NCBI GenBank assembly: GCA_964572155.1
Contig: CAZNDZ010000001.1
Location: 207,300-271,299 of the forward strand
Direction: 5' to 3'
Length of the DNA stretch: 64,000 nt
Origin: an uncultured Planctomycetales bacterium
GTDB taxonomy: Bacteria; Omnitrophota; Gorgyraeia; Zapsychrales; Fredricksoniimonadaceae
The notes beneath the pieces were generated by a model, which ran no database searches, had not been told where the DNA came from, and worked only from the letters and a program-made list of their open reading frames with translations. Numbering within the stretch: position 1 is the stretch's first letter; each line of letters begins with the position of its first letter. Of this stretch, positions 1 to 47,988 are shown one piece after another. The position numbers were made by a program, and so were the translations under genes.

Positions 1-3000
1 GTTTTTCCGCTGAATTTTCCCCATTTTCTGAAGCGGGAGTACCAGCTGGAACATTATTTCCTGAGACATTTAACGAATTATTGCGTACGGCGCCACTCGA
101 CAAAGTACTGGACGAAACACCTTTAGAACCTCTAGAAACAGTGCTTAACACACTATCCCCAGCAGGCTCTTTGGATAGACCTCGAGCGCTTACACCTTCG
201 GCAGTCGCTGTAGATACAGCTCTTGCACTTAGGCTAGATGCAGAACTTCCTATATAAACTACACCATCTTGTTTGGTACCTGCGGCATTGACCGAAGTCA
301 ATCCTGTCTGAGCTTGTGTTAATGCTGCCACCATAATGTCCTTGGACATTACAGCTCTTGCTTCTGCTACGATGCTACCAGTTTGGACATTAAACGCTGG
401 CATTTCTGCCGCGCTTGCATCTCTTATAAACAATGCTGCAACTACTGTACCTACTACGCGTGCTGCATTTGCTACTTTACTGACTACTCTACTTCTGATG
501 CTGGTGGACGTAGCTTGCGCTAAGCCACTTTCTGCTGTTTTCACAGAAACTACTGTTTTTGCTGCAACTGCTTGTACTGCATTCGCTTGTAAGTTTTCCC
601 CGTTTACTGCAACGTGTGCCGAAGCGATTGAGGAAATCGCTGGCACAGAGCTACGACCCGGGTCATGGCCTTTATCTGTTTTTACTAAAGTATCCCAATT
701 ATGTCTTCCTTCTAAATCTGCTCGCGTAATGATGCGATATGTGGTTTCCCCATAGGCGTTCGTGCCTAGGCCAAATACCATTGGCGGGCTGCCAAATCCT
801 GAGCCAGCGGCTGGTATTGGGACGGTTAAAGGCGTTACAGGTGTCACAGGCGCGGCTGTTGGTGCTACAGGCATGGTGGTGCTGGTATTGGTTGTGCCTG
901 TAGTAGCAGCTTGTGTTGCTGGTGCTGCGGTTGTGGCCGTGACACTGGGTTGTGCATTTGTTGGCTGATATGTAAGTCCAAGCGGCGCTGCTGGGCCAGT
1001 TAAGGCTCTTGGAGTTGCAGAAACAGTTTGGGTTCTTGGCGTTGCCGTTTGTGTTGTTGAAGCAAAGGCTTCTCCTGATGCTCTATGTTGGCTTTCTGGA
1101 GTTGCATTAACTGGTGTTACCGATGGCATTGCTCCTGTGCTAGCCATTGGTGCAGCAGCGGCAGGGCCGACTGGTGTTGGCATGCTTGGTGCCACAGGGC
1201 TTGCTGGAGCTGTTGGCGTGCTGACGGGTGTGCCAACTGGACCTGGTAAAATTGGTGTCTTTAAAAATGCTGGTGTGCCACCGGTACTGTCATCGTCGCT
1301 GTTCGTGTTATTGCTATTGGGCGACGCAGCTTTTTCCTCATCGCTTGGTGCTTTTAAGGATGTACGCAATTCATTGAGCTTGGTTAAGATAACCTTGGCG
1401 ACGGTGAGTAAGAGTGTTGATTCTTTCTCACTTAATTGTTGGATGGAAGCTTGTGTCAAAATGCTTGTGACTAAGCTTTGTATGCCTAACGCGTCTAGTG
1501 CATCCACTGGGCTTACAGCGCCATTGCTGCCGGCGACGATGGCCTTCAGATCTTCTGGTGTTAAATTATTGATCGCGGCTACAGCAACGCTGAATGCTTT
1601 CTCAGATTTCTTTACGTATTGTTGGAAATTGCCTTCTCTATATATGGCTTGCGCATCTTGCCACTTTTGGCCAGCGGAATAGAGCGGTTGTAAGGCGCGG
1701 ACGATATTGTTTTTGCCTTGGGCCTTGGCGGCATTGTAAATGGCCATGACGTTTGGCATGATGTCGCTGGTCTTAACGGTTACATCCGATGTTTCAAGGC
1801 CAATGGTGTTTAAGAACGCGATGACTTGTTCTTTAGCAGCATTCGCAGCTTGTACGTCGACGGATGGGCGTTCATTGTAGTTTGCAATATTTGTTGGCAA
1901 GATGCCGCTAATCAAGCGGGCAGCTTCATTGAACTTATCACCGTAGGCGGTCAATTTATTTAAGCCTTGTGGTGTGCCTTGTAAATCTTGGTCTGCTGGG
2001 ACAACTAAAGCTCTGCGGCTTGCAATCTCACCGTCGTAAGCTTTGATCACGGCGATCAAGTCGCTATTAGTGCCTTGCTTATCGTCTAAGATAGCAATGG
2101 CATCTTGCCTCATACGTTCAGCTGCTTCGATGCTCGCTTCATGCGCACGCCTGAACCATTCTGCAGCGCTTAAGTAAACTTTCAATAATTCCTGCATGGT
2201 GTTGCCATACCAGCCGGCGGATTCTTTAAAGAAGATTGGCGCTAATAATTCTTTTTGCGCTGGTGTTGCGATCTTCATCCACTCATTGATGGCTTTAGTG
2301 GAGTTTTCGTTTCTAAAGAAGGTCAGGATCGCATGCTTATATGAATTGGAACGTTGCAATAATTGGCGATATTCCGTAACAGCCTTTAAGCGTTCGATGT
2401 CGTCGCTGGAACCCGCTAAAGCTTTCACATTGCCAAGATCTGTCAACAAGCTTGCAGGAATACCTGACAAACCTTCGATGTTGGCGATTTCTTTTAAGAT
2501 GTACTCTAAGGAACGACCCACTTCTTGGGCGTCATAGAGAATATATTTATTACCCGTGTCATTGGCGTTACGAATGTTACGGTTGACGCCGTGGGTTAAA
2601 TCTGTTGTTGGCCAGCGTTGGGCATTGACGACGACGACGTCTAAATTACCCTTGAAACTAAATTGTTTAGCGAACATTGGCAGGGCTACATAAACAACGC
2701 CTGCTTGTGTGCCTTCGACAGCTTCGGTGACTAAATCTTTATTGGTGCCATCTAAGTAAACAGCTTTGAGACCATTGCTACCTAAATATGCAGTTAAGTC
2801 TTCGCCGGCTTTAGGACCATCGACTAAAGCTAATAAACGTGTTGAACTGTTTTGGCCTTGTTGAATTTGCCCTGCCAATTCCTTGACCTTAGCAAATTGT
2901 TCGCTCTCTGGAACGGCGATTGGCTCGACGTGTTTAATATGATCTGCCACTTGTTCAAAGACATTGCTTTCTTGGCCGATCCTGACAATTTCACCAACAC

Positions 3001-6000
3001 CCGTCTTGACTTGCAATAACGCTTCTGCGCCAGACAAGGTTGCTGATACGCCTGTCACATTGCCTTCGAAAATTTCCATGACTGGGTTTTCATCGGTCAC
3101 GTGAGATGTAACGACGATGTCTTCGGCCTTTAATTGATCTTCTGGATGTGCGGCATTGTATTTTAATGTTTGGACAATTTGATATGGCAATTGGCCAAAG
3201 ATTTGATCGAACAATGGACGGCCGGTTCTGTCATTTGGAACCAATTGGCGCTTGCCTTGTGAGTTTGTGCCCACGGTTAAACGCTGACCGATATTTTCAA
3301 CCAACCCACGCAAGATGCTTTCAACCAAATGACGATCGCTCTTGGCAAACTTCTTATATAAAGCTTCACTGACTAAGAAATCATTCTCGCCGGTTAAGCT
3401 GTTTGGAACCAATTGTTGATTGTTCCAAACCATTTCTTCTTTATGATCTAAGCCTTCCTTTGTTGGGGCGAACTTAAATTGCACTTCGCCGTTCTTCAAT
3501 AAAGCCGCATAGATCTTTTTAACTTGGACATACAAATCTTTTAAGACAACATTGTCCCCAACGCTTTCTGGCGCGGAACGGATGAACGTGGTTTCAAGCA
3601 AGATAACGTCGTCGATTTCATCAACGATCGTGACGCCAGCTTGTTTAATGTTATTGATACCTGCTAAAACTTCTGGGTTATCCTTAAATTGATTTGGCAA
3701 ATGGCCGCGTGGCGTTAATGAGATAAGCTTTAACGTGTCATTGTCATTTAAGGCATTGGCGACATCGTCTTCTCTGGCCTTGATTTGATCTTTGATCTTA
3801 TCTAAGGCTGTGCCCTTTGGATGTTGTTCATTTTGACTTGCTTGGTGCGCCTTGATCAAGGCGTCCATATTGGCTAACTTGAAGTCTTTACCGATGCGTT
3901 GTCCGACTTGTTCGGCCAAGGCTTGGAAGGTGATGCTGCCTTGAGGCACAATTGGTTCTTGGAAGAACTTGGTTAAATCGTTTTCTTCACGCACTAAGAT
4001 TAACGCTGGGGCGCCTGCGGCCATATAGCTTAAGGCGGCCATGAACTTAGATAATGATTTACCTTGCGCGTTTGGTGCGATCGCGATGTTCATCTTCACA
4101 AGCTCGCGGGCAATCTTGACTTGGGCTTTAAATTTATCCGCATCGAAATTGCTTTCGGCACCTAAGATACTTTCAACCGTATCAACAACTTGATCAAAGG
4201 CAACTAAAACAGCCTTGGTGTCGACAGACATTGCATGATCGCCCATGTTGAAGTTGTTGCGGCCGTTGGTCTTGATGACATACATGCGGGCATCAGCAAC
4301 CTTGATATGTTGTTCTAAAATCAAATTGCTTTCAGATAATGAGACATGTGTTCTGGCATTTTCTTGCTTATCAATGCTGCTAGTACCAGCGCTGATGGTG
4401 ATCATCCAACGATTTAACTTATATTGGCCATTGTTGACAGCGTCTAAAGCTTCACCAAGGTTAGCAAATTGTTGCTTCAAATCTTTCAACGCGACGGCAT
4501 TTTGTAAATGGATTTGATAGATCAACGCTTCATATGGCTTTGATGTGTCGTTACGATCTTGCTTACTCAACGCGTTTACGATATTTCTCTTATTTGATAA
4601 TTCAGGAACCGTGACATTGTCAGCGATGTGCTTGAGCAAACGGGTCATGAACGCTCTTGCATCTTCTGTATCGATGTTTGGCAAGACAATGACAAATTCT
4701 TCGCCGCCATAGCGTGCGACAACGTCGCTGGTGCGGGTGCGGTATTGTAAGGCTTGGGCTACGGCTTTTAAGACATTGTCGCCTGTGCCATGACCAAAGA
4801 CGTCGTTGACAGCCTTGAAATTATCCACATCAACACCGACGATCACATCGCGTTCATTGCCTGCGTTACGCACTTGGGCATTGATGATACGATTGAATGC
4901 TTTTTGTAAACCACCGCGATTAGTCAAGCCCGTTAAATTGTCTCGGAAGTTTTGATTGTCTGCTTGAGCTTCATACAAAGCCTTTGCCGTAATCACGTTG
5001 CCTGGCACGCCAGTGATTTCATATAACGTTTCTACGTCTTGTTCGCTTAAATGTTCAATGCTTTGTTTTTCTGGTGTTAAGAAAATGTATTGTCCTGGGT
5101 TTCCAGATGCTTTGATCATACGAATATCTTCAGCGCTAATGACTTCTTCAATGACTTTATCCTTATAGTAGGATGACAGCATTGGGTAGTTGGCAATGGC
5201 TTCTTTAATCAAGCGCTTCTCGCTGCCCGTGCTATAAGCTAAAACAGCCGTGATATTGTTGTCCTTGGCATAGGTCAATGTATCTGTCACAAGCTTGCCG
5301 ATCATCGCTGAATCAGCGTCGCTGACAATGCGACCTTCTTGGTTCATGGCAGTCTTTGTAACACTCATCGCTTCAGAAAGATTTAAGATGACAGGTGCTG
5401 TTGGTGGCATAACATTTGGAGCTGGCATCATTGGTGTTTCAGGAACGATGGCAGGCTCGCCGTTACCAAAATCATCGCCGAAGCTGTTTGGTGTATCTTG
5501 TTGTTGATCCATCACAGGCACTTGATATTGATCATCACTTGTCGCGGCTTCTGGCATGGTGATTTCTTGAGCGACAGGTTGTGCCACCTTGATCGCTGCT
5601 GGCTTAGCACGTTCGATCATCAATAAGCTCTTCACATCAGCAAAGCCCTTACCTTCGTTTAAGGCAGCGACAATTTCTTGGGCTTCAGGTTGAGCAATCT
5701 TCCAGCGCATGAACCATTGAATGGATGCTTGTGTGGCTTCCGCTTTTTCAGCTGCGTTCATTGCAGCATCCATACGTTCTAAATGTAAGGCCCTGTAAGC
5801 ATTAAATGTTTGGGCATCGACCGCTAAGATTGAATTCTCAGATGCTTGTTTCGTTGTGCTTTCAAAACCAAGTTGTGCAACAACCGCTTGCACAATTGCT
5901 TCGGTTTGATTGGCAATGTCTGCTGGCATTTCTTTAACATCTTCGGAATCATTATCGCCAATTAAGACAACCCCGATGATTTGTTCTAAGACACGTTGAC

Positions 6001-9000
6001 GATCGGTATATTGTAATTTTTCTAAGCCCTTACCCATCGCAACCAACGATGCGACAATCGCTTGCTTATTATTCCAAGCCAATGGCGCAAATTGTTCTCT
6101 TAAATACGTTCTTAATTCAAACAAAGCCGTAAAATCAACATCTTGAGCAAAGTTATCTGCTTCGGTGAAATCTTTACCGAATAACTTCAAGGTGCGGTGA
6201 TTGTAAAATTCTTGAACCTTCATCGCCGCATCGGTCATCTTACCTAACTTGTATTCAACCCATGTCTTATCATCCGCCCATTTATCCGTGATACCACCTG
6301 ACGAGGTAACGACGGAAGAACCGACTTGGGCTTTTTCTTTGCGGACTGGTTGAGCGCGATTATTGTGGCGATCTAAGTTTGCTTGTGCGCGATCGAAAGT
6401 TGCTAAGACACGTGCGATAGATGCATTGTCTAAAATTTGAGCACGAACTTGTTCTCTTACCGTTTTAGCTGTTTGTGCAAAATCAGGACCAATTTTCATC
6501 AAAAGATTAAAATAGCTCTTATCCGAGATTGTAGGATCAGCTCTCTTAACTTCTGCACGTAAATTCTTAAATTCACGAGGAGCAATTTGTGCGTAATCTT
6601 TTTGTGGAGCTGCTTGCTTTTCTGATCGCAATCTAACGGATTCTGCTAATAATGTGTCGTTGTGAACGCTAGCTGCTTTTCTAGCTACGTTGACAATTGC
6701 AGGAAGAGTTTCAAGCGCGTGCTTCTTTGCATTTTCCATTAAGCTACCAAAGACCGGAGCTAATTGCGCTGGCTTAACTTTCCAGACATTGACATTAGGT
6801 TGAATTGTTCCCTTAAGAATATTTTCAAGTGATGCATTGATTTGTGCATTCTTGGTGAAGTTATATGCATCTACCACGACGATAGGTTGATTTCTAGCAT
6901 CTAAGGTAACCTTATAGTCAATGCTTTGAACACCAGCTTGGCTTTCTTCGCTAGATTCTGGCACAACGTAATTAGCTTCATATTGATTGGTCTTAGGAAC
7001 ATAGACTACATCAACGGCTTTATCATTGAACTTTAACTGCGTAATAGTCGTTTGGTTTAATTCCGCATATGGCGTTAACAATGGCATGATGTTGGCAATA
7101 TTGTTTGATCTAGCGCTTCTAATTTGCTCAACAATGATGTTTAATCTGCTGCTATCGTTGATGCCCATATTTCTAAAGATAACCTTTAACTTATCTAAGG
7201 ATGTGCTTCTTAAAACTTTTTCATCAATACCTTTGATGGTCACAACTTCTGGCATGATCATGGCTTGGTCAACGTTTAGTTTAGCTAAAGTCTTACCAAT
7301 GACTTCTTGATCAATTCCTTCTGCAGACTTGAGAACCTTATATAGTGACGCTAATTGTTCTGGCGTGAAGACTAAATTACCGGACACCTTGTTAAACATC
7401 TTACGATTCTTGACCACTATAGGATGATTTGTGTCTAACTTATAAGCAACAGGCTTAACATCGCCTGAGGTTGTGATTTCATAGGTTACTTTTTGAATAC
7501 CGGCTTTTCCTTCATCACCATCAACCGGCACATTATGTTCCGCAAAGTATGCTTTTTTGTTTACATCAAATGTTGCTGCTTCAACAACTCCATCTAATGT
7601 CACGCTCTTAATAAAATCATTGTTTTCTAAAGCAGGATATCCAGCCAAAACCGTACTAATAGCTTCTGGGCCCTTAGTGCGCACATTTTGAATTTGTTCG
7701 AAAATGTTATTTGCAATCCATAAATCCAAACCAGTTGCTAATATAGCCCTCTCTAATTGCTTTGGTGTGGCATTCTTAATGAATGCTACGTTAGTTACTT
7801 TTTCTCTATTAATTTCAGGAGCCATTGCTGAATCAACGTTCGCTTTTGGAGCCTTGAATGCATTGCTGATGATGCCGGCAAAAGTGACACGTTTTGTTTC
7901 CGAAATATCTGGCTTGACCGTAGCAGCATCTTCGATGCCTAATAAATTCTTCAACGCAGCCATGGCTTGGTTGGCGGTGGATTGTTCTGTATATGCTGGC
8001 AATGTAGTGACTAAAGCTCTGAATATTTCTTTACGTCGTTTTTCTGTGGCAGACTTAAATTCATTGTTAGTTTTTAATGAATCGGTCAGTTGTTTAATAG
8101 CCTTAACATTGGCCGTTAATTCGTCTTGATCAGAAATAATTCTTGCTACCTTTAATGTTAACGGAATAGCTATTTTGCTATCGATATCTGTGTCTGAGTA
8201 GACAACGCTGTTAGCGAAGATTTCTTGGCTTGCTTCTATTAATACAGCTTTAAGTAAGCTTGGGCGAGCGGCTAATTCAGAGAGAACTAATTTATTAAAT
8301 GCTTTTGTATTTTCTTTTGTTGGGTTACTGCGGGTTGCATCCCATAAATCCATCACTTCGTCTCTTTGACGAATTTCCTTGATGTGCTGTGTGATGATTT
8401 GCTTTTCATCATTCGAAAATTTCTTGCCCGTCATCATTTGTAACTTTTCAATGATGCCTTCTTCACGATATGTTACAAACACATTGTCTTTAGCAAATTG
8501 TTCGATTAATTTCTGATCGTTTAAGAGTTGTGCTGCCCATTTCTGGATGCCATTTTTTACTCTTAATTCAACAAGGGCTGGGAAGCTTGCTTCTGCTTTA
8601 AGTCTTTCAACAGGATTATTTATACCTGAAACCACTTTGATGGCTTTTTCAATCGCTTGACGATCATTTTCATTAACCTTCAAGATGGCTGGTACTGATG
8701 TTTGATCAATTACCTTGATTTCTGGTTTAAGTGCTCTTAAATCATTCATCGCTGTTTGCGCGAAGATCTTGCTGATTTCTTTGAGATCCTTTGTTGGAAC
8801 TTTTTCAACTAAATGCAACGAGGTCTTCATTGCGATTAATTCTTTGATTTCGTCTTTCTTATTTGTTGCCTTAAGCGCAGCGATCACTTGATCGTCTGTT
8901 GCTTTTGGCATAACACCTAATTTAATGCGAATATCAACATCATCGATAATTGCTTTATAAATACCCGTATCTTTTGCCAATGTTAAATATCGACCCAACA

Positions 9001-12000
9001 TATCTTTTTGTGCCTTAGCCGCGGCATTATGTTCTGCCAATGTCTTTGGTTGATTTGGCGTTGTATCTTCAAAGTTTGGTTTTGTATCAGCGAACTTAGG
9101 TTCAGTTGTCGTACGTTCTTTTGGTTCTTGCTTGTTGCGTACTCTGGCTGTCCATGCAGTAACAGCTAACATTAAACCTGCAACGGCGAGGGTAATAGGC
9201 AATGTGTGTTCTTTAATTGCAGCACCGATCTTGGCACGAACTGATTGGCTGCGTTCTTTAATTTCCGCTGCTCTGTCTAAAATACGTTGGCTTGCTTCTT
9301 TAGTAGCTAATAATGTTTTATCGCCTTGCTCGATGACTCCCTTAGATGATTCTTTGATTGCCTGAGCAACAGCTTCTGTTTTCTCAATAACGTTTCCAAT
9401 GAATGTTGGTTCTGGTTTAGAGATATCATACACGGCGACATTGGCATTCCCGCTTGCTGGCACAACTGCGGTTTTTCCATCTACAATTGTTTGTGAATTA
9501 CCTGCAAGACCTGCCGCCAAAGCAATAGCGCCGATCTGCAAGATTCTTTGTGTTCTGTTTTTATCGTCTGTACCAGGCTTTACAGCTGGTTGTTTAGCAT
9601 CAGCCATCATTTGAGCTTGAGGCTTTTCAACTTCAATCTTTTGACCTAATTTTTCTTCTAGAGCAGCAATGACCGCTTGTTTGCCTTCTTCTGTAATGGC
9701 ATTGCGATACAAGTTCAATCTGGTTCTATAGAACAGCTGATCTTTTTTATCTGGAGCGCTAACGCTTAAAACTTCAACATCATTTAATGTTAATGGACCT
9801 TGTGTTGTCGTTGCTTCAAGTTGAGCAGGGACTGTTTCTGCGATGCGATCAACAACAACTGGTTTGAATCTTTCAACTACTTCAACAGGAAACCCTTTAA
9901 GTATAGCCAAGTTAGTTAAAGCTCTTGCAGCAATTTCATGACTTATACGATTACGTTCTCCGAGATTCTTGATCTTTGTTAAATTGTTATAAATTAAGTT
10001 GGCCACATTATTTTTGGTGTCTTTATCCGCAGGGATCTTGCTTGCTTCACTATAAAGCTTATCGTTGCTAAATGCGTCTGCATGTTCAACGATCGCCATC
10101 ATGATTTCTTTAGTTCCCTTATCAGCGGAATTAAATGCTGACAGTAAACCTTGAACCACATTCTCTTGAATTGGTTTTCCACCATAACCAGAAGTAATTT
10201 GAATAGCTCTTGTTTCTTGAGCCTTAGGGAGTCTAAATGCATAAATTAAACCTGCAGCATGCTCCACATCTCGTTCAGTTACCATCGCATTATCTTTTGA
10301 AGATCTTAAAGGCGTTGTTAAATCAATGTCTTCCCAAGCAGCAAAAGCTGTATTTTCTTCGGTTGGTCTTGTCTTTAAGGTATTTAATATGTTTACTGAA
10401 TTAGGTGTTTTGCCTAAGCGTACTGCAACGTTATCTAAAAATTTGATTTGCTCTTCACGATTTGGTAATCGTGCCAAATTACTTTTAATTAATTTTCCTG
10501 TCGGTAAAGCTTCAATGTCCGCAACTGTAAACGTTTGTTCTTGGATAACTTTCTCATAGATACGGGCAACCTTACCACCCAATGCTTTTTCTGCAGCTTC
10601 CGGAGAGATAGCAATTTGTCTTTTTGCATTGCGTACCGTGAATGCATCTAAGCCATTGTCCAACCCAAATTTCTCTGCCAAGAATGTTACTTGTTCCTTG
10701 AAGCTTACCTTCTCGACAAACTTAATTCTTTGTTCGCTATTTGAAGCAGGAGTATTAATATTTACAACCCCCACAGATGAAGGAACAACTGCATTAAGGA
10801 CATTTTCTTCATCATTAGAATCATTTAACACCGCCGCCATCGCAGCATTGCTGGTTTGCATGATCTTGATATTTGGATATGCCGCTTTAACAATTTTATC
10901 AAATGCCGCTGGGCTGATTTCTGTGCCGTTGACGACAATGCTTTGAATCACTGGTTGCAACGTGCCCTTAACTTCATAATTAACGGCGGTGACGCCTAAT
11001 TCTTTTTGGGTTGGGGTTGGCGCCATCTTCATGATGGTTGCTTTGACTGTTTCTTCGCTTAAGAGCGCATCGCCTGCTTTTGCTTCATATGTCTTTGGAG
11101 TAAACGCCGTCGCAGATTGTGGTTGAACTGTTGTTTGGCGGATGGCTGCAACGACGGGTTTTAGACCGGCATCTTTTTGCATCTTTTGATTTAAAGCGTT
11201 TCGCTCTACGGCATCTTGATGATTCTTAACGAAGACTTGTTCAATCTCTTTCCATTTAGCGGCGTATTCTGGTTGGATTAAAGGCAATACAGCTTGCAAT
11301 TCTTTTACAGATCTCTTGTTTTCTTGATACGCACGAACACGTTCTTGCATCGTTGCAACATCAGCTAACCATGCTGGCAATTCACGTTCTATTAATTGTG
11401 TATCATTTGGATTGTATCCTTGTAATACTAAGAAATTGCGCGCAACGTCCATTAAATTAACATCTTGATCTTTCACTGACTTGCCTTGTGCGTCTACCAT
11501 TGGAACAACAGCTTTGGCTTGCAATTCTTTAATAGATTTTTTATTAGCTGCTTCATTTTGTGGATCTACAGCTTCAAAGCTATGAATCATTTCGTGGGCA
11601 AAGACAATCTGAACATTTTTTACATCTGGATTCTCTGCATTTACATGAGCAGCGAATAACGCCGCAGGTTTTTCAACAGTCCATTTGCCATCTGTCTCTT
11701 TGATCAGACCATTGTTAACAAGCAAGCTTGTGAAATTCTTTTCTTGGCGGGTTAATTCATGATTGCCGCGTTTGGCATCATTTAAATATGCAACAACTGT
11801 CTGCGTTGTTAAGTTTTCACCAGCAAAACCAACCGTTCCTGCTAATGCTGCAGGGACGATGTCGCCAGCTTCATATTCATTGCCTTGGCCTTCTTGATGT
11901 ACTTCCGCCCTGCTAAACATCTGTCTACCGATACGGTCATCGACGATAAACCCATAAATATTATCAGCGATACGATACGCTTGAATTGCTTTAGCACCCT

Positions 12001-15000
12001 CTGCAATTTGTTTCGCTGTCGCTTCAAAAGTCTTCTTATCCTTTGGAGGATCTGTAGAGATGGCTGATATTGTTTCTGCGTCGGCTAATTCTTGAACCTT
12101 TTTCCATATATCACTTTGCTTATGTAAAGCTGCTGCATACTCTGCTTTCACGTCAGCAAACGTATCTTTCATTTCATTCTCAAGAACCTTAGGATCACCA
12201 GTGACACTCGCAATTTGACCATCTTTATCAATATTAACTGTATTGACTGTGCCATTTGTCTTAATCTTAAATGTTCTGCTGCCATCTAATTCTTCCACCA
12301 CAGGATCAACGTTATTCTTTAAAACAGCTGCAGCCATACGTAACGTTTGTGTATCTTTTTCTGTTAAACGGCTATAGCGAACATTTTCTAACAATTTCGA
12401 CATCGCTGGATCATTAATATATTTCTGAGTAACTTGAACCAGAATATCACCCAACGCAGTTTTATGTTCCATCATGCCAACTGTCTTGCGCAACATTTCT
12501 TTAGCTAGCTTTAATTGCTCTGTTCTGTCCATATCAACGACTTTTCTGTCTTGATACATCCATGGCAATTTTAATGTGAAATCATACAATGGAGCTTGCT
12601 GATTATCTAACACCTTGATTTTAGCATCCAGCAATTCGTTGGCGTGATCAACAACATCTGCTGTTTCACTATCAGCATGGATGTCAATTAAGCTATCTGT
12701 TTCTGGCTTGTCTAATGCTTGTTCGACAACTGTTAAAGCACCTGTAGCTGCTTGATAACTTGCTGCAGCAATGTTGCGACTTCTTTCAAAAACTTTTGCA
12801 GCTTCTTTAGTAAATGTATTGAAACCTTCTTCATCGCCCAATTCCTTAGCACGGTAGGCATTCTGCAATTTACCTGAACCTTCAATGATATGCGTATAGA
12901 TTTCACCAAGCGCATAACCTTGAGTATTGTAAATACCGCGATTAAGACCTTTGTTCAAATCATTATGAATATCAACACGTGATGGACCAGCAATCATAGG
13001 AGCTACTTTAGCCATACGCGCAGCACGATCGAAAATGTGAGCAATTTCGTGATCAGGAACGCCTGCTTCTGCAACTTTCCAACCCATACCTAAAACATAC
13101 AACATTGCATTTGTACCTAATGACAAGGTTTTATTATCCGCCAAACCTGCAGAATTTTTCATCTCCATGGAAGGATCAAAAGCAACGCGCATGTTTTTGT
13201 TTTGTAACAACGCTTCTACTTGTTGTTTGGCTTCTGCAATAACCGCATCTTTTTGTTCTGGTTGAGCTTCGTCAGCAAGATAGAATTGTTGTTCGGCTTG
13301 TTCTCTAAAACCATTTTCTGTAACGTTTTGACCCATCAAGGTACGTATCATGCCTGCCAAACGATTATTGACACCGTTATTGTTCTTAAATTCTAGAACT
13401 GGCATGCTGCCTTTTTTATCTGCTGGGAGCGTCTTTAGGTGTTGGACTAATTCAGCAGCATTCTTTACATTCTCTACAGGTGCGCCATCTATTGTTACGA
13501 CTGAATCAATGCCATGGCGTGCAGTAACTTCCTTAATCTTAAAAATCAATTCGGCAAGTGGTTCTGGTGCAGCATTTTCATTGCCGCTTAATACATCACG
13601 ACGCTGATTGGCATAACGCAAATCATCTTCATATGTTTTGATTTTAGCGATCATTTCTTTCGAAGCGATCTTCATGCCTTGTTGAGCCACTGTTTTAGGA
13701 TCAAAGCCCAATGTTTGTAAATTTGATTGCCAAATGTTTGTATCGGGAATAACCACATCTCCTGCGGCATCTATGGTTGCGATCTGATCAATGAACTTAA
13801 CGGCTTTTAACTTGCCTGTATCACTGTAAACCCCGCCATTCTTAATAACGTCGCCGGCTTTGAAATCTTCAAATGCTGATGTAGCCACAACCACTTCTTT
13901 ATCTTGCCATGTATTGTTTTCTGTAGAAAATTCATAACGATGTTCTGTTGGCAAGCTCACTGTGACATTCTTACCTTCATAGGACACTACTGCTTTAGTA
14001 GCGTATTTAGCTTGCACAGCAACTTTTTGACCATTTGAATCATTTGAAACACGCGCCACTGCACCGTTAATTAAAATGGCCTTAATGTCTCCGTTCTTAG
14101 CTTTTACTTCCCAAATTTGTTCGTGATTGCTGTTATTATCTTTACGTTCTAATTTATCGGTGCTTTCAAATGCGACTAAATCATTACGTAAGCTTCTTCC
14201 AGGATTCACTAAGGTTGTTTTCTCATTCTTTAATTTCTTTGTTGCTTGATCAAAGCTCCACTCACGACGAATGACTAAGTCATCGCCACCGCGTTCTTTA
14301 TCGAAGAAAACGCGTAATTTAGCAGTTGTTTCTAAACGAGCCTTATCTGCTAAGCGCATCAATTGACCTTCCATCAATACCGCTTCGACAGCGTCATTCT
14401 CTATATTGTGTAACGTTAAATATTCTTCCTTGGTTCCTTGAACACTGCCAGGAGTAGCGCGGTACGTTGTCGTGTTGACAATTTCCTTATTGGTGTCTTT
14501 TTGGGTAATCGTTACTTCAGGACCAAACTTAACACCGTGATAATTAGCGTTGTAAATGGCTTGACGTGTGATTTCAAATGTTTGATTCGTGTTCGTATCA
14601 ACAACCTGTGATGTATACTGTCCAACATAATCAGCGCCTTCAGGTTTTACTGCAATCATGACTAAACGTTTCTCTGTGGAAGCCGTATTAACATCAAAAC
14701 CTTTATCTGCATTTGTACGCAACACATCTTGTTCGGTAATAATATGACTAAACACTGGTGTGTCGCTTCTATTCCATTCTTCAAGGCTATAAACTTTACC
14801 TGTTTCTTTATCCCACACGCTATTTTCTAAAGTAACTTGGCCATAATCACCAAACGACTGATTGCTATCGAATGTGACTTTGTTGGCACCGACAACAACA
14901 TAACGGTCCGTAGTTTTTTCAGTAATAGCTACAGGATTCTTGTCGACAATGAGTGCAGTACCATCGGAGCGATGAATCAAGGCTTGATTTTCTCTAACTC

Positions 15001-18000
15001 GTACTGTCTTTCCATCAACAATTTGTTCATGTTGGCCAGCAACATTTTCCGTGTTGTGTGCAATGGCTCTTTCTCTATTAACTTGTTCTGTTTGAGCAAC
15101 AGCTTTATTAACCGCGGCTTCAACAACAACATCCATACTTCCGCGGATAGCTAAATCTTCGGATCTTTCTTGAGCAATTATTTCTAATTGTTTGCGTAAT
15201 TCAATTTGCTTTTGCGCTACAGGAGCTTTTGATTGTTGAATCCTATCTAATCGTGCTTTTTGTGCATCACTTAAATGAATATCAGCGTCAAGCAAAAGTA
15301 AAACTTCCGTTTCTTTCGCATTGGTACGTTTATTAGCTCGATCAAAAATGCTATCTTTTACATAAGAACCGAAACGAGCCATCGTTTGTAATAAAGAGGA
15401 TTCTGCGCGAGCGCCAATAATAACATGTTTTGCTTGTATCACATTATCAACGACCACGGACTTTGCTTCTACAGAACCATCGACTTTCTCCACACGTACA
15501 TCTAATTTCATGTTACGACCAAATGTTGGGTTGACGCCTTCTGTCATAGATGTCAAAACTACCATTTGACCAATTTTCTCGCGTGCGGCTTTTGCAGCCA
15601 CAGCTTTAAGAGCTGTCTCGTACGACATCCCCCCATTAGCTTTACGATATTGATTAACATCCGCTTGCTTTATTTCAATGGTGCCGACTCTTTCTTTCAT
15701 TGTTGCACCCACTGCTTTACCAACACCATCTGTTGCGTTTTCTGGCTTATAAATAAAAATGTCGTCTGCTTTGATGCCCGCGCTTTCCAAGAAAGATTTT
15801 ATTTTGGCTTCGCCGCCATCTTTTTCTAGTCTATATCTATCAATCAAACTAGTTAACATTGAAGTATTGATCAATAGAGCCGTGTCGTTTTCGCCACGTT
15901 CATACGCTTCTTGATAACGTTTTGCTACATCTTTTAAAGCAGCTTCATATGCTAGATCAACATTGCCAGCCTTATCGCTTGGAAGCGCCATAACGCGTAC
16001 TTTATATTCAAAATCTTTAAACTTTGGAGCTTCATGTAATTGGTAGAATTCTGTGCCCATGTTGCGCATGGCTTGGGTTGATTCACCTGGAGAACCTGTT
16101 AACATAACTGTGCGACCACCGCTTGCGCGTACTAATTCCAATACATCCGCACCTGTAGACTTTACCGATTCTTTTCCGTCTACGTGACGTGCCCATAATT
16201 GCAAACCATTGTCATTAATTCTGCCGTTTTCTAAAATCTTTAATGAGCCTCCTGCTAATTCTGTGCCGGAAGCTTTTTCATTAGCATAGTGAGCCAAAAT
16301 TACTTTCGCTAAAGCATTGACGCCATCTTTATCAGAGAACAAACGATTAAGAGCTCGTTCACCGTTAGCAGTTATTTCGTACGGATCATAAACAAGCACT
16401 CTACCGTCGTCTTTTACTTCGAAACGAATTGTTTTGTTTTCAATGGCGCGATGCAACCACGCTGCAGCTTCAGCATATCGGGCAAAACTTTCAGGTTTTT
16501 CAACAGATTCAGCACCAAAATAAGTTTGGATGTCCTTTGCGCTTTCTTTCCACAACGCATCCATCATATCCTTAGATAATTCATGACTATCGGATAATGT
16601 TCTAATGCCTTGTTTCTTATTGGGCGTATTCTTCTGAAGATTTGCGGGACCGCTAGCTCTCATTAGTTTATCTAAATTACCCATAATGCGAACCAACGCG
16701 CCAAAAGTATCTCTTTCACGTTCTTTAATTTTTGCCCCGTCTACTACGCGTTCATCCCATTCTCTAACCTTTGCAACGCCCGCATCATGTGATCCACCAA
16801 TAATCATGGCTGGCGATGTATAAAATAAATGTGCTTCATCAGCAAATACAATTGCATTTTTAAATGGATTAACTTCCTTTGATCCACCCTCCACGGTCTT
16901 TCGAGCTAAGTCAACCATTTTGGCTTGGGTGTACGACATAACAATGACTTTGCTTGGGTCATTAATCTCAAATTTATCGCCAACGCTTTTAATGGTTGAA
17001 ACTTCAAAACCATCTCTATATTCATCTTTTTCATATTTTGACGTTAAGTTATCTTGGGTTACTAAAATAACCTGCTTGTCAGTGTTGCTTTTAATAATTG
17101 GCATTAATTGATCAACGATGTCTGTTTTACCACCACCCATGTTCAAAATTGCTGCCATCATGGCACTGTCTTTAGGTTTGCTACTTAGTGTAAAATCAAT
17201 GAGGCGTTCAACAACAGCGGTTTGCCCAGCATTGAACTCTAAACCTTTGAAATCTTTTGCGGGCTTAGCCAATGTCTCATGCCAATTCTTAAAGAATGTA
17301 TGCATGATCTCACCAGTGGTCTGTTTGCTGCCACTTTGTTTCGTTTCTAATTTTGTACGTACAGCTTTTACAAAACTTTGTTCTTCTTTGGTTTGAGGAG
17401 TAGGCTTTTCTGCAGCTGCTTGTGTAGATTCACCTTTGGATTTACGATACTCTTGCAACGCTCTTTCTACGATCTTTGTAACATCATAAGTAGGCGTATT
17501 TACAACTTGTAATGCTCTAAATTCTGCTTCTTCACGCAATTTTGTTTCAGCAATCGCTTGTTCTCTCGCTTCTTTCGTTGCTAATTTTGGAGCTTCAACG
17601 CCAAAACCTTGCATGTAAATATCTTCGGTTTTTACAACTTCACCTCTTGTATCACCGTGACCAGCTAACCCAATCGTCTTAGCAACAATGTCGGTGGTCA
17701 ATGTGTTTCTGGCATCTCTGGCTGTAAAACGTCCAATTAGTGCTTCAACTTCTGTTTTGGCTAATTTTTGTTGTTGACGCGCTTCTGTGGATTCTCTAAC
17801 GGGGGTGGCTACCAATGCATTATCGGCGGCGCCGATATTTACAACGCGCACATCAGATGGCAATTCTTTTGGAGGAGCGCGGGATTCAGAAACGCCTCTT
17901 TGAGCAGAAGCACCATACATTGCAGCCGCAATATCGTGAGGATCCTTGTTACTCTTTAAACCTTCTGGCGTTTGCTTCAAACCTAATAAATCCATTGTGC

Positions 18001-21000
18001 TAGCATCTAAGTTCTTTATAGATCCGTTTTCAGCTAATTCAATGCCTCTGGTCGCACGTAATTCGCGCATTTCGTGTAATGCAGCATTGCTGTCTTTAGC
18101 GACAATGATAACTTCACGAATACCATCAGGATGTGACAATACAACAAAAGCCCCATCTTTACCGAGCATTTGAGCTGCATCCGCATTTTTGTAATAACGA
18201 ATAACTGTTGTAGGATTGCCTTGCTTGTCATTTAACGTTCTAACAGATGTTGCTTCGCTTTGATTTGCTACATCAACAATTTCTGCAGCAGATGCGCGAC
18301 GTTGTGTGTCATCAGCCTTCTGAATGCTATTGTCTTTTGCGCCAATAGCAACTACGGCAACATCACCTCTTAAAACTTGTAATTGTCTAATCTGAAGATC
18401 TGTTTTTGAATCTTCTTTGGCTATCGCTTCTCTTAAAATTGCATCAACAGGTTGTGCGGCTTCAATCTTTAAGCCTGAAGCCTCTACTAAATGTAACGCC
18501 AAAGCTTTATTATAAAGTTGGCCTGCTGTTGCGCTGTTCCCTTCAACTTCAACCGCTTTACTAAAATGTTCATAAGCCTTTGTATAAAACTCTCCGGCTT
18601 CATTTTCTGGTCTTGCTGCACCTTCCCGAATAGCTAATTGACCTTCTAATGTATTCAAAGTGCTCTTTAATTGAGGTGATTCGAATAATGATATACCATC
18701 TAATTGTTTTTGAGCTACATCTAAATCTTGACGAATTTCTGCTGTCTCTCTACCGCCAGATCTTTCCATCATGGCAGAAGCGCGCATCAATCGTAAGCTG
18801 AGATTAGATTCATCACGGCTAAGGCCTTCTGTTGCTAAGCTAATGGCTTGTTCCAAATGCTTGCTATCTCTGACTCTGTGTTCTAATAAGGTTCTGATGG
18901 ATCGTTGATAATATGTAGAGCTTTCTTGGGCAGCCAAACGACTAATTGTTTCAATGTGGTTGGCGCCATTCTTTTTGGCAGTTTCAACCACAGCATCAAT
19001 ACTGATACGACCACCTTCGGCTGGGTTGTTGCTTAGAATTTTAATTTTAGCGATGTACGCCGCTGCATCTTTAGGTGCTATAGAAATTCTTTCTCCTAAG
19101 AATTTAATACCTGCTTCCGTGCTGCTTTCATTTCGTGCAGATTCAATTTGTGCTTGTTGAGTTAGAATATCAGCACGTTGGGTTACATTATTGATATCAT
19201 CCCTATTTTTTGATTCCGCTAAATTCTTATTAGCTGCTTCAAGAGCAACTACCGCTTCGGTTTGTAAACGTTCAATTTCTGTTTTATTAGTTGTTGCATT
19301 TTCCTTCTTTAAAGCTTCAATGTTTCTCGTTTTAGCTTGGGCTAAAAGTAAATTACCGCGAACCGCGTGCTCTGGAATTGCAATTAATTCTTTGGCAAAC
19401 TTGGCCATGTCTTCAAATTTATTCTGGCTGGCAGCATAACGAATTTGATTAACTATGCGTTCAACAGGAATTGCATTTTTAAATTGTTGAATATTCGTAT
19501 AACCAGCATTTAATTTACCGAGCGCCCCTAACTTACCTTGGTAGGCGTTCGCTGCTTGTTCCAAATAATTATCTTGGGCTCTGTAAGCTAACCCCACTTC
19601 AGTTGCGGCAACTGCTAGGGTTGGGCCTGTGACATTTGCAATATTTGGATTCTTATCTGCAACTTCAGCAGTAAATCCTCGAGATACTAAATCAGCTGCT
19701 TTTGCACCTTCAGCTAATGCTGCTAATGTTAAAGCGTCTCCACGAGCTTCTGTGCCGGTTATACTAGCAACTTTATCCATTAGTGTTTTATAAGCTGTAT
19801 CGCGAATGTCTTGTGCTTGTTTATTAATGTCTGCTTTTTTATCGCTTGTTGCAGTTGTAGCTGTCTTCTCTAATTCAGTAGCGCGAGATAATGAATTTGT
19901 ATAATTAAGAAATTCGGCTTCGGTGTTATTCTTCCCGGATAATGCCATCGCACGATTGATACTTGATTGAGCATCAATCGATCTTCCTTGAGACATAGCT
20001 AAACGCGCATCGGCAATTGCTGTTTGCGCTTCAGTTGCACCGGCAGGCTTTAACATCAAACTATAGAAGGCGATGGTTTGTGCTTTCTCTTGTATCTTTG
20101 CAGCAGCATAAGCATCAGCGCTGTATTCAATATCTAATGCATTTGTATAACCTTGTATTTTCGCTAACTCAACGCCTTCATCACGTAATCTTTTTTGTAA
20201 ATCTTTATCTTTGACCAAGACACTATGAGCAATATTTTCAGTTGCATCCAATTGCAATATGGTTATAGGTAATGCATGACCTTTAGTTGCAATGAAATTA
20301 TAAGCTTGTGCTTCATACTTAGATGCACCTTCCGTAAAAGCTTTTAGTGGCATTTGACCTAAAGGTAGCAGAACCCCTATCGTACGACCCATCTCCATAC
20401 CACCTGAAACATCTCTTGCTAACTTCTTCATCAAGTCGCCTGGCTCAATTGCTTGGCCAGTCATTAAATTAGTAGCGAAATGTTCTTGATATGCACTCTC
20501 TACAGTGCCTCCGTTTGCAATCACTCGGACAGGCACATCAATCATACTCCAAGCTGGCATCATTAAACCAAAATCAGTTGCTCCAACTACAGATAAACGT
20601 GGGACAATCATAGGATTCTGAGCAATGCGTTGTAACATGGACATGTCCCCAACCGGACTACTTGACCATTTTCCAGTTTGTGCCCAATTATTCATACCTT
20701 GTCGCATTAAACTCAAACTACTTAAACCTGCACCGGCAACAGCTCCATATAACATGTGATTTAGACGACGACTATCTAATACGTCGGCACCTTTTAACTT
20801 AGCGTCGGCAAATGAAATAGCAAATCCTGCAGTAGCGCCGAGACCCATGCCCGTTCCAACTTGTGCTGCTATTTGTGTTTTAGAAAGAATCGCTGGAGTT
20901 TTTTGACCGGCGGCATTAATAATTGTTGGATGTGAGAAAGCATACCTCAAAGCACCTGAACCGGCAATTGCTCCAATAGCGGCGCCACCTGCAGTATATT

Positions 21001-24000
21001 TTAGGAACGATTCAACGCCTTGCTCATCACTTCTGGCCCATGTGAGAGCCCCTACACCGCCACCAATAGCAGATCCAGCAACGATGGGTTGAGATAAGGT
21101 TGGAGATACGGCTTTATAAAAGGCTGAATCTTTTATTTTTGCAATCGCGGGAATTGAATTGCTTAGCTCTTTCGTAGCAATTGCTTCTTTAGTACCAAAT
21201 CTTGCGGCTGTTTGGCGGAATAAATTTGAACCAGCCCAGGTAGACGCGCCATTGACCAAATATCGACCTGTAAGTGTTCCTATTGCTAAATCACGCCCTA
21301 ACTTTGAGAACGTATACTCTCCGCCATCATTTATTAAACCGCCGCCGACAGAAATAGCACCATAACCCGCGCCATTTACCCATGGAGATACCCCTACATT
21401 TTTAGCGGCTGCTAATGCCTTAACAGTACCAAAACCTGCGCCTAATGCTAAGCCAACCCCTGCATCTTTTGCAAAATTTTGGGATGTAAAATAATCACTC
21501 CAGCTGCCGTTATAGTCAATGCCTCCGCGTAATGTATTGATAGCCGCCCCGCCTAAAGAAGATGGTATTGCAGAACCGATTGTTCTCAAAGTGCTTGCTG
21601 CCATCGAATCATTAACTAGAAATTTCGCAAATCTTGTATCATTGTTAAGGAGTTTTGTTGTGGCTATCCATCCATCAGCTCCGGCTACACCTCTAGCTGC
21701 AAAAGCCAACCCGCCTGAAAACACACCATTTGCTTTAGCAACATTGACCGCTGTTACCATGGCATCATCAAAACTTGCTCCGTTAGCGTACATATTAACG
21801 CCGCCGATGACGCCGCCTAAACCAAAACCTGCCACATTGCCTACAATAGCTGTCTTACCTAAATTAGAAATTGCATTAGCTGATGTTACTAATTTTCCTG
21901 TTCCAGAAATTTCACTAGCAACAGAGGCTTTTAAAATATCTTGTGCAGCTCCAGTTAACAAACGCGCTGAAATTCCGCCTTCAAGAGCATTTGCTAATGG
22001 CATTGCTTTGGCTGCATTTGCTGTCGCAGCAACTCCCTTTGTAACCATGCCGACACCACCTGCTAAAACTAATGCTGCATTCGCGCCACCTAGGATAGAA
22101 ATATTAGAAACATCAAGGGAATCACCTAATTGTTCTGATGCACCAAAATAATTACGTAATCTGTCTTTGAAGATTGTTTGACGTCCTTCGCCTTTATAAC
22201 CGTCTGTGAAGAATTGTGAGAATTGTGTGCGTTCTTTAAAGACATCGTGTGCTAAGACAGACCAATATTCGTTGTCTCCTGTTTTGATCGTCATTGGTGC
22301 TGTAATTGCTTTACCCGTCGTTAAATCAAAGGCTTGATTAGCTCTGCGAGTAAATTCACCTTCTTCTAAACTATCACTACCTTTGAAGTATTGACGTAAG
22401 AATGAGTCATCTTTAGCAACAACAAGAACTTTATGTTGTCCGGAATTAATGTCTGTACCTGTGATAACTTTGACGTCTTTACCACTATAATAACCAGATA
22501 AGTCATTATTGGCGGAACCGCTAGCATTGGTCACTGCAACATTTTGTAGAGCGAAGCTAACATTGCCGTATTTATCTTCATTCATACGGTACATAACGTG
22601 ATTTACTTTATCGCCGTCTTGAGCAGAGAATCCGTATACAGCATTGTTATAATCAACCTTTGTTGCTGTGCCAGCCGTTGAACTAAATGAGCCGTTTTCT
22701 TGATTAAACGCAACTAAAAGTTCGTTCTTTTTACCTTTATCATTAACTGAGCCGTCTCCCGTTAAAAGTGCATAATCTGGAGTAACTAAGCGCGCTTTAG
22801 CAACATAGTCTTTTTCGCTAACTTTAGGTTTTCCTTCTTCTTGTGGAATGCCTTTAGCATCAATAACAGCAAAGCTACTCTTCATTGCAGATTTTTCGTA
22901 TAAAATATTAACGCCAACTTTGCCGTCAGCCATTTTCGTTAACTCAACATCTTTAATGTTATGTATGCCATAGCCTTGTCCTGCTAAAGCTTTATATGCT
23001 TCTTCTTTTGTTAAACCAAATGTTTCAAACTTTTGTTTTAATACTTGTTCTACTTTGTTTTCTGGTTTTTGTGTTGACGTTGGATCTGTAGGTTTTGTAT
23101 TAATGGTAGACGTATCTGCCAAGCTTCCTATGAATCTAAAGCCCCAAGCACGACCACGAGTATCGGTATTTCCAGCAGCTTTCCACTCATCATCTGTTGT
23201 CAAGAAACCAAGCCCAACTGCTTTAGCGTCGTATACGCCACTTAAGCCGGTCATTAAACCTTGCGCATTTGTCGTCTGTGGAGTGAATGTTTCAATCTTT
23301 CCACTGGTTACATTGAAATCACCCGCTTTAGCTTCTGATAAATTAAAATTAGTGTCTATTAGCCCAGTAAATGCTCCCTTGCTATTTACATTTAATGGTT
23401 CAACAATATTCATGTTGGTCCATTTCTTACCATCTTGACCAGCAATAATTGTTTGACCATCAACCGTTAAATTGTTAACACGTGCAACAAGGCTTTCTGT
23501 ACCTAATAATTGGAGATGCCCGCCGATGACTTTGCTGCCAGTTGGTGTCATATATGTTGGCATATCAATCAGCATGACGAGTGCATCTGCTTCACCAGCT
23601 TTTCTTGCTAAATCAACATTTGACTTTACTGTCAAATCAACGCCTTTTGCTTCATCTTTAACCACTGTATCACGTTGAGAATTTAACGGGGCAGCTTCGG
23701 TTACATTACGACTGAGTGTAAATGCTTTTGTTTGGCTTAAATCATGGGTTAAGGATCCATCCCCAATTTTAAAGAATAATTTACTGGTGGTAGAATTTGA
23801 ATTTAATACAGCATTAGCAACATTTAACACTCCGGCTTCTTCAACCCCGTTAACATTCGTAGGCTTTTTAGCATTTCTAAGATCTTTAATTGATACGGTG
23901 CTATATACAGCTTCATCACCTATACCACCGCGAATACCTAATACATTGACATTTTTGGCTTTAAACTTAGGATTGGCTAAATTATTTTCAATAACACTTA

Positions 24001-38027: not shown

Positions 38028-38039
38028 CTTTATTTACCT

Positions 38040-43709: not shown

Positions 43710-43712
43710 AAC

Positions 43713-44876: not shown

Positions 44877-44893
44877 TACAACTCCTCCTTGTA

Positions 44894-47986: not shown

Positions 47987-47988
47987 GT

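Follow-up and report, generated by a model that had tools for sequence, protein, structure and literature searches.

Within a 64,000-nucleotide stretch of DNA (contig CAZNDZ010000001.1 of assembly GCA_964572155.1, positions 207,300 to 271,299 of the forward strand; henceforth the window, meaning this whole stretch) we found a giant open reading frame (ORF) whose product is very likely a membrane-associated giant protein of the Omnitrophota with a C-terminal enzymatic cassette, in which a canonical GGDEF diguanylate cyclase domain is joined by a linker of about 25 amino acids (aa) to a highly divergent SecA-like ATPase. A scan of all six frames for long stop-free stretches, accompanied by a listing of start codons, recovered 10,169 codons uninterrupted by a stop on the minus strand, running from window position 30508 to position 2, where the frame reaches the left edge of the window. 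The aa numbers used below are positions in this stop-free frame beginning at 30508, in which the likely initiating ATG is codon 18. Both domains lie in this one ORF, and no stop codon interrupts the linker.

The presence of a GGDEF domain some 8,500 aa into a giant protein had been proposed in an earlier reading of the same DNA (the original prediction), and re-translation bore out both the position of the domain (aa 8521-8755) and the register of the motifs, placing GGEEF, RTSD, DVD, the Walker A motif and DEID as given below. The range that had been assigned to the domain and a succeeding P-loop, 3600-5010, corresponds to aa 8499-8969, that is, to the GGDEF domain together with the first lobe of the ATPase from Walker A to Walker B. 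The statement that the domain is embedded far from either end of the protein holds for the N-terminus; the C-terminus is not contained in the window and is separated from the domain by no fewer than 1,400 aa. The giant ORF and the features of its enzymatic cassette are as follows:

2..30457, minus strand: giant ORF of no fewer than 10,152 codons, counted from the likely start ATG at 30457, with the C-terminus past the left edge of the window
4244..4948, minus strand: GGDEF diguanylate cyclase domain, aa 8521-8755 (Pfam, phmmer against the PDB, alignment, AlphaFold, Foldseek)
4823..4831, minus strand: DVD motif (re-translation)
4724..4735, minus strand: RxxD inhibitory site, RTSD, aa 8592-8595 (re-translation)
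4694..4708, minus strand: GGEEF active-site motif, aa 8601-8605 (re-translation; columns invariant in alignment A3, described below)
4412..4594, minus strand: insertion of about 60 aa in the GGDEF domain, aa 8639-8699 (MAFFT alignment)
2159..4168, minus strand: predicted divergent SecA-like ATPase, aa 8781-9450 (family profile, AlphaFold, Foldseek)
4055..4078, minus strand: Walker A motif, APNAQGKS, aa 8811-8818 (re-translation; N-x-x-GK[ST] kept across 11 relatives)
3611..3622, minus strand: Walker B motif or DExD box, DEID, aa 8963-8966 (re-translation; DE-x-D kept across relatives)

Identification and conserved residues of the GGDEF domain

The Pfam profile PF00990 matched aa 8522-8638 with a score of 104.8 bits (cutoff 23.8; E=5.1e-30), and a phmmer search against the PDB retrieved 47 diguanylate cyclase chains, the best of which was the Thermotoga GGDEF domain 4urs (E=1.8e-20); in this search the last, C-terminal helix of the domain aligned again beyond an insertion. 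The translation contains, in order, RDNLTGLTNR, VDVDNFKAVNDVFGHGTGD, RTSDVVARYGGEEFVIVLPN, ITISAGTS and VADARMYVIKTNGRN. The inhibitory site (I-site) RTSD is situated five residues (VVARY) upstream of GGEEF, and an RxxD site five residues before GG[DE]EF is typical of the GGDEF family, albeit not obligatory. We aligned the domain with its 60 nearest relatives using MAFFT and prepared a second alignment of 70 sequences (A3). The arginine and aspartate of the I-site are kept in 98% of the 60 relatives, and wherever conservation among these relatives reaches 85% or more the giant protein retains the residue, save for a single alanine that is replaced by arginine at aa 8741. All 21 of the columns that are invariant in A3 are likewise retained.

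By reference to PleD, we take D8560 to be the equivalent of D327 (metal), K8565 of K332, N8568 and D8577 of N335 and D344 (guanine) and R8599 of R366; R8592 and D8595 correspond to R359 and D362 of the I-site, E8603 and E8604 to E370 and E371, K8746 to K442 and R8750 to R446. The ligands of metal, guanine and phosphate are thus all present (D8560, K8565, N8568, D8577, R8599, K8746 and R8750), and this set, the RxxD site at the same five-residue spacing and a helix leading into the domain are shared with canonical diguanylate cyclases. The domain differs from these in its two insertions. The longer one, of about 60 aa, separates the ITISAG strand from the strand that follows helix 3 and occurs in none of the 60 aligned relatives, and the second, of about 12 aa (aa 8717-8728), is similarly absent from all aligned relatives. 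A further difference is in the setting of the domain: canonical cyclases have a receiver, PAS, GAF or membrane sensor in front of them, and this one is found about 8,500 aa inside a giant protein.

An AlphaFold model of aa 8440-8790 gave a GGDEF core with a predicted local distance difference test score (pLDDT) of 85-98, with the long insertion modelled as helical at low confidence (pLDDT 50-68). When this model was compared with the PDB using Foldseek, the best 50 matches were all GGDEF structures, with target TM-scores (TMt) of 0.84-0.88 to 4urs and 4urg and the value of 0.88 being reached against 4urg_B; 3ign, WspR, PleD, DgcB, DgcZ and GcbC (5euh) were also among the matches. In family, fold and GGEEF motif the domain resembles the T. 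maritima GGDEF domain (4urg/4urs), WspR (3bre, 3i5a-c), PleD (1w25, 2v0n) and DgcB (6ttr). The closest sequence relatives of the GGDEF segment are ordinary proteins of 200-640 aa, none of them giant, with 40-50% identity in the core, and the top-scoring match to the segment ranks high only through its two GGDEF domains. Profile match, invariant columns and fold together support the original prediction of a full-length GGDEF domain, which on these grounds is complete and apparently catalytically competent.

A divergent SecA-like ATPase module

The segment following the GGDEF domain had been compared earlier with the P-loop ATPases DnaB and KaiC. Its RecA-like lobes are upheld by our analysis, and the affinity proposed for it is not, because the top 24 fold matches are all SecA or SecA2. 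Neither the 27 profile matches nor the top 50 fold matches include RecA, DnaB or KaiC, and we accordingly reject a DnaB/KaiC-like ATPase.

Single-sequence searches were nearly blind to this module, and its assignment therefore draws on a family profile and a predicted structure. A phmmer search of the PDB with the single ATPase sequence gave only a marginal match to the second lobe of UvrB (E=0.6), and a word-indexed protein search with aa 8751-9450 gave no match. Exhaustive searching of 1.84 billion cluster representatives with HMMER recovered just 19 relatives of the module, mostly fragments of proteins of 1,509-7,198 aa with 24-39% identity, along with a few short fragments with 58-95% identity; for one of these relatives, P0004, Pfam reported only a sub-threshold generic DEAD match (E=0.004). 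In an alignment of the relatives, with motif conservation judged on 11-14 of them, the conserved motifs are N-x-x-GK[ST] (in the giant protein the GKS is aa 8816-8818), S-x-x-x-RG-[HF]-LP, DE-x-D, EN-P…G-[VL]-SAT…GAE…KTG, F-x-G-x-x-D and L-[TS]-[HQ]-x-x-NR-N-x-R, a set that fits a two-lobe ATPase of the superfamily 2 (SF2) type. By eye, the Walker A motif and the DEID box of the giant protein resemble GEGKT and DEVDSILIDEA of SecA, and not the motifs of DnaB or KaiC. The motif-VI arginines are retained in the ATPase, with the NRNxR motif being common to the relatives, and the column of the motif-V arginine, placed by eye against the SecA motif GRGTD, holds lysine or another residue in most relatives.

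A profile built from this alignment and run against the PDB yielded 27 matches, the first of which was M. tuberculosis SecA2 (4uaq, E=1.7e-5), with matching stretches in both lobes, followed by Cas3, Thermus SecA, DDX42, UvrB and Mfd. The AlphaFold model built on the same alignment has a mean pLDDT of 84.2 and a predicted TM-score (pTM) of 0.82. In a Foldseek comparison with the PDB the top 24 matches to this model, all SecA or SecA2, had E-values of 8e-16 to 7e-10 and alignments of 610-814 columns, and the best was 6itc_A, a substrate-engaged SecA-SecY complex (E=8.4e-16, query TM-score (TMq) 0.55, 672 columns); after SecA came the SF2 enzymes UvrB, XPD and DinG. The model runs from a first lobe through a beta-rich insert (residues ~225-360) and back into the first lobe at the SAT motif, and then through a second lobe to long helices (547-661), an order that seems to parallel the succession of first nucleotide-binding domain (NBD1), preprotein cross-linking domain (PPXD), NBD1, NBD2 and scaffold in SecA. 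The module is thus comparable to SecA and SecA2 in that the model aligns along its full length, over about 670 columns, with the SecA of at least five species, has the same order of elements and possesses the GK[ST] and DExD motifs. It differs from SecA in its low sequence identity (9-15%), its weak profile match (E=1.7e-5) and its place within a giant protein, SecA being a free cytosolic motor. No secY, secE or secG gene was found in the window.

Architecture of the giant protein

Outside the cassette we delineated the following features of the giant ORF:

30275..30340, minus strand: N-terminal hydrophobic anchor or signal-anchor, aa 57-78, FNLWIRSVALLVLTVFIPDQVS (hydropathy scan and re-translation)
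29612..29848, minus strand: Peptidase C39-like domain, aa 221-299 (Pfam PF03412, E=5.6e-9, 36.4 bits, cutoff 22)
9146..9205, minus strand: internal segment of greatest hydrophobicity, aa 7102-7121, TLPITLAVAGLMLAVTAWTA, with RVRNK after it (Kyte-Doolittle scale, 19-residue window, score 1.79)
4949..5371, minus strand: small segment preceded by a Pro-rich linker; its final helix, at aa ~8503-8520, leads into the GGDEF domain (sequence; AlphaFold model)
2..1348, minus strand: Ala/Thr/Ser/Pro-rich low-complexity region, aa 9720-10169, cut by the window edge (sequence and composition)

The C39-like domain is located shortly C-terminal to the anchor. Besides this domain and the GGDEF domain no Pfam family was detected in the 10,169 aa at E<=0.01, and the description of the protein as adhesin-like in the original prediction is accordingly not retained, as Pfam finds just these two domains. 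The segment at aa 7102-7121, which precedes the GGDEF domain by about 1,400 aa, is a candidate for a transmembrane helix; membrane topology was judged by a hydropathy scan, and such a scan does not settle which side the long central region faces. Between this hydrophobic segment and the GGDEF domain (aa 7122-8520) neither sequence relatives in the PDB nor a Pfam family were found, and the same is true of the small segment at 4949..5371, whose lead-in helix (residues 64-81 in the model) immediately precedes the GGDEF core.

The G+C content at third codon positions (GC3) changes along the giant ORF. It is 0.24-0.34 over aa ~1000-8250, rises to 0.42-0.49 over aa ~8250-9750, i.e. the block comprising the GGDEF domain and the SecA-like module, and is 0.32 in the Ala/Thr/Ser/Pro-rich tail, with breaks near window positions 5750 and 1250. 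The raised values of this block match those of gyrA (0.485), gyrB (0.449), cpaEF (0.447) and tadB/C (0.50). This pattern suggests that the enzymatic cassette may be under a constraint resembling that of core genes while the long middle of the protein drifts.

Searches for the DNA past the left edge of the window did not recover it, in that an exact 60-mer was absent from the GTDB species representatives and a peptide pattern was absent from the Joint Genome Institute (JGI) metagenomes. A degenerate pattern for DLTHxVNRN retrieved 42 loci, none of which encodes a relative by tblastn, and these appear to be chance matches.

Points against the proposal and alternative explanations

Several observations weigh against a canonical cyclase linked to a SecA-like motor on the cytoplasmic side of the membrane. 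The cyclase activity is predicted from criteria of sequence and fold, and the insertion of about 60 aa, modelled with low confidence, could hinder dimerisation or access of the substrate. The cytoplasmic placement is proposed from the nucleotide requirement of the two domains. The Pfam models SecA_DEAD (PF07517) and SecA preprotein-binding gave no score on aa 8751-9600, even at E<=10, and for this reason we call the module SecA-like and do not label it a member of the SecA family. Finally, upstream sequence is available for eight relatives of the SecA-like module, and phmmer detected no GGDEF domain in any of these. Because none of these eight carries a recognisable GGDEF domain, the pairing is not a conserved unit, and as far as sequence detection reaches the GGDEF domain is not a conserved partner of the SecA-like module among the distant relatives examined; Pfam similarly found no GGDEF domain in the six long ones that were scanned.

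Two of the relatives deserve separate mention. P0018, a distant relative of 7,198 aa, has in common with the giant protein both the N-terminal motif VPEQVSWAFNYNP.VLWG and the SecA-like module, and it also contains a second, separate helicase-like P-loop (GGLGKTF, MIDEAHSLF) about 2,400 aa before that module. In P0022 the stretch at aa ~380-480, which lies about 650-850 aa upstream of the SecA-like module, looks by eye like a degenerate GGDEF or nucleotidyl-cyclase core (ALIDINGLKRLN, GSGDESVVTLP), although hhalign against the GGDEF alignment returned only E=0.008 and a probability of 5%.

One alternative is that the GGDEF domain serves as a nucleotide sensor: its ligand would be either cyclic di-GMP (c-di-GMP), bound through the RxxD site, or GTP, bound in the active site, and it would signal to the SecA-like motor or to the rest of the giant protein. 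Sensors of this kind include PopA, PelD and the GTP-sensing GGDEF domains of GGDEF-EAL proteins. The two unusual insertions of about 60 and 12 aa, the intact I-site, the presence of an ATPase to regulate only about 25 aa away and the heavy demand that dimerisation would place on a membrane-anchored protein of more than 10,000 aa all speak for such a role. However, in GGDEF domains of the receptor type such as PopA and PelD the GG[DE]EF loop is usually degenerate or ligands of the metal or guanine are missing, whereas here the retention of all 21 invariant columns, among them GGEEF, D8560, N8568, D8577, K8746 and R8750, is hard to explain without catalysis, and we consider a sensor to be unlikely. 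A different product would be made if the domain were of the 'Hypr' type, which synthesizes cyclic GMP-AMP (cGAMP) or another mixed cyclic dinucleotide. The same fold and motifs are expected of such enzymes, and the Geobacter GGDEF structure 6d9m is indeed among the fold matches; yet Hypr GGDEF domains, as Hallberg and colleagues reportedly found in 2016, have a serine in place of the guanine-selecting aspartate (D344 of PleD). The selectivity position is occupied in the giant protein by aspartate (D8577 in GHGTGD), and this column is an invariant aspartate in the canonical relatives, making a Hypr enzyme highly improbable; we reject it on the identity of this residue.

It might also be supposed that the long ORF is an artefact of assembly or annotation, with the GGDEF domain and the ATPase coming from separate, ordinary genes. 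Giant ORFs from metagenomes are sometimes chimeric, and the protein databases searched contained no near-identical GGDEF segment. Nevertheless, a run of 10,169 stop-free codons is impossible by chance, and no stop separates the GGDEF domain from the ATPase, but just the short linker. The order of the flanking genes is repeated on independently assembled Logan contigs, one of which, of 55,967 bp, is long enough that it ought to extend into the GGDEF region; a fragment that stems from a different dataset (P0005) is 95% identical across aa 8839-8990; and P0018 unites the N-terminus and the SecA-like module in one protein. An artefact is therefore so improbable that we discount it, on the strength of the stop-free frame, the Logan contigs and the relatives.

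A canonical GGDEF domain with a SecA-like motor behind it thus remains the reading that we prefer. We further considered whether the two might form one regulatory unit, in which c-di-GMP that the GGDEF domain makes or binds would gate the ATPase responsible for exporting or assembling the giant protein, or the motor would gate the output of c-di-GMP. This is suggested by the linker of about 25 aa and by a codon-usage signature distinct from that of the rest of the gene, and we give it only a slim chance.

Relationship to described Omnitrophota giant proteins

The original prediction knew of no described precedent for a cyclase domain within such a protein. A precedent does exist: West-Roberts et al. 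2023 (bioRxiv 10.1101/2023.11.21.568195) report GGDEF domains, divergent SecA, C39, a Tad-like locus and PilZ for the giant proteins of Omnitrophota, and the present GGDEF-bearing giant protein is a further example of the type described in that preprint. The GGDEF diguanylate cyclase domains are said there to occur 'in many Archaeovorin sequences', and divergent SecA DEAD and preprotein-binding domains to follow C-terminal membrane anchors; N-terminal C39 (or S8) peptidases are found near the signal or anchor, with many transmembrane segments. Upstream of the giant genes these authors describe a type II secretion system (T2SS)/Tad-like locus with gspD/E/F, rcpC, Rotamase_2 and small genes with class-III signals, and just downstream of most of them small PilZ genes. 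Their study set was defined by a threshold of 30,000 aa and comprises two giant classes, the Archaeovorin type (HEAT, glycosyltransferase, TPR) and the Dockerin type (dockerin). A link between giant ORFs and Tad loci in Omnitrophota is also made by Seymour et al. 2023 (PMC10066038). In a 2026 survey of complete genomes with 916 long proteins (10.64898/2026.06.07.730766) the two largest clusters are C39-only and SecA_DEAD-only, and a mostly cytoplasmic, membrane-anchored topology is discussed for nearly half of the long proteins.

The protein described here is comparable to the giants of West-Roberts et al. in its Omnitrophota host and in being a single ORF of more than 10,000 codons, truncated by the window, against their threshold of 30,000 aa. 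Other shared features are a C39 domain by the N-terminal anchor, a GGDEF domain and a late SecA-like module after a hydrophobic segment, as well as an upstream locus with rotamase, rcpC, secretin, T2SS-E/F-type genes and class-III-signal pilins in the same gene order. However, it fits neither of their classes, as Pfam detects no HEAT, glycosyltransferase, TPR or dockerin domain in the 10,169 aa. The tight juxtaposition of the GGDEF domain and the SecA-like module is a feature that the preprint does not describe, and the SecA-like model obtained here runs on into long helices after the second lobe, whereas the preprint has the scaffold and wing missing. What sets this copy apart is the presence of intact catalytic and I-site residues in a giant protein, the tight junction between the GGDEF domain and the SecA-like module and the break in codon usage. 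To the earlier description our analysis adds a residue-level confirmation of the GGDEF domain, a confident structural model of the SecA-like module and the absence of the adjacency of the two from the distant relatives examined.

Functional implications

As GTP or ATP from the cytoplasm is needed by both domains, we propose that the block formed by the GGDEF domain and the SecA-like module would be cytoplasmic, with the hydrophobic segment at aa 7102-7121 probably in front of it. Only dimers of GGDEF domains are active, and synthesis of c-di-GMP would therefore require the pairing of two giant proteins. This could perhaps be mediated by the lead-in helix; WspR and DgcB use such a helix for pairing. 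The amount of c-di-GMP made would in that case reflect how far the giant protein is clustered or assembled, with feedback through the I-site setting an upper limit. Such a signal would likely be read by small PilZ proteins, whose genes are described just downstream of most Omnitrophota giant genes and would here fall outside the window, and perhaps also by the neighbouring Tad machine. The SecA-like motor would most likely serve to export or insert either the giant polypeptide itself or its partners, as West-Roberts et al. proposed. Functional coupling of the motor and the cyclase is possible, their adjacency being the one feature that hints at it.

An analogy is provided by the LapA/LapD/LapG system of Pseudomonas fluorescens with its cyclase GcbC, in which c-di-GMP controls a giant adhesin in trans through separate proteins. 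Common to both systems would be a local production of c-di-GMP tied to a very large surface-associated protein. Unlike in the Lap system, the cyclase domain is here within the giant polypeptide itself, and Pfam scans revealed no LapD- or LapG-like gene in the window.

The giant proteins of Omnitrophota rank with the largest that have been described, and hardly anything about them has been put to the test. The present protein offers two compact enzyme modules, a GGDEF domain of about 240 aa and a SecA-like ATPase of about 670 aa. Were the GGDEF domain shown to be active, this would be direct evidence for a part of giant proteins in c-di-GMP signalling, beyond adhesion or digestion of cell walls, and would offer a way into the question of how an ultra-small bacterium, probably a predator or a parasite, couples a giant protein to a Tad pilus. 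If, moreover, the cyclase and the motor did act as one unit, deployment of the giant protein and of the Tad pilus would be coordinated by a second messenger made by the same polypeptide, and the protein would represent a cis-acting, c-di-GMP-coupled self-export system without a characterised counterpart.

Host and genomic neighborhood

Among the GTDB species representatives the nearest relatives of the GyrA encoded in the window, with 83-93% identity, come from metagenome-assembled genomes of Candidatus Omnitrophota, some records of which are labelled 'uncultured Planctomycetales', and we place the host in Omnitrophota on account of these relatives. The ORFs of the window were scanned with Pfam, small ORFs being listed separately, which gave the following genes outside the giant ORF:

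56376-63702, minus strand: dnaA, dnaN, gyrB and gyrA (Pfam)
36226..53735, minus strand: upstream Tad/Flp pilus-type locus (Pfam scans; class-III signal motifs in the pilin ORFs), including the next six entries and, within it, the uncharacterized 1,158-aa protein
52806-53735, minus strand: PpiC-type rotamase (Pfam)
51907-52785, minus strand: RcpC/CpaB (Pfam)
50156-51910, minus strand: secretin with a C-terminal TonB_C domain (PF03544, E=7e-18; Pfam)
47989-50175, minus strand: CpaE-CpaF fusion of 728 aa, uniting a ParA/MinD-like (CpaE/TadZ-type) domain and a T2SS-E ATPase (Pfam)
43383-46052, minus strand: seven or eight Flp-type pilin ORFs in tandem, 63-136 aa (small-ORF listing)
36226-38027, minus strand: TadB/TadC, two T2SS-F proteins (Pfam)
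38366-41842, minus strand: uncharacterized protein of 1,158 aa inside the Tad locus (no Pfam family at E<=0.001)
32104-36162, minus strand: uncharacterized protein of 1,352 aa just below the Tad locus (no Pfam family at E<=0.001)
30930-32099, plus strand: AAA_14/DUF4143 ATPase, the sole plus-strand gene of the window (Pfam)

The Pfam scans and the Flp-type pilin ORFs corroborate the earlier statement that a Tad pilus locus adjoins the giant gene. All of these pilin ORFs carry the class-III signal motif, KGQS[TL]VEY, and a hydrophobic helix after it. The remaining minus-strand genes code for a glutathione S-transferase (GST), a carbon-nitrogen hydrolase and a malate/lactate dehydrogenase, which are listed between gyrA and the rotamase, for a DUF192 protein and a 493-aa helix-turn-helix (HTH) protein, listed between the CpaE-CpaF fusion and the pilins, and for an uncharacterized protein of 463 aa after the pilins. 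A distance of about 26-33 kb separates dnaA, dnaN, gyrB and gyrA from the point where the giant gene begins; the giant gene and the Tad locus are therefore close to the probable replication origin of the genome of about 1.34 Mb.

A few further peculiarities of this neighborhood are worth recording. The fusion of secretin and TonB_C domains in one ORF is unusual, and the 1,158-aa protein inside the Tad locus is Cys-rich with a hydrophobic segment at its start. The CpaE-CpaF fusion is called as a single gene of 717 aa on an independent Logan contig. The AAA_14/DUF4143 gene lies between the start of the giant gene and the gene for the 1,352-aa protein, and it occupies the same place on a Logan contig from another sample.

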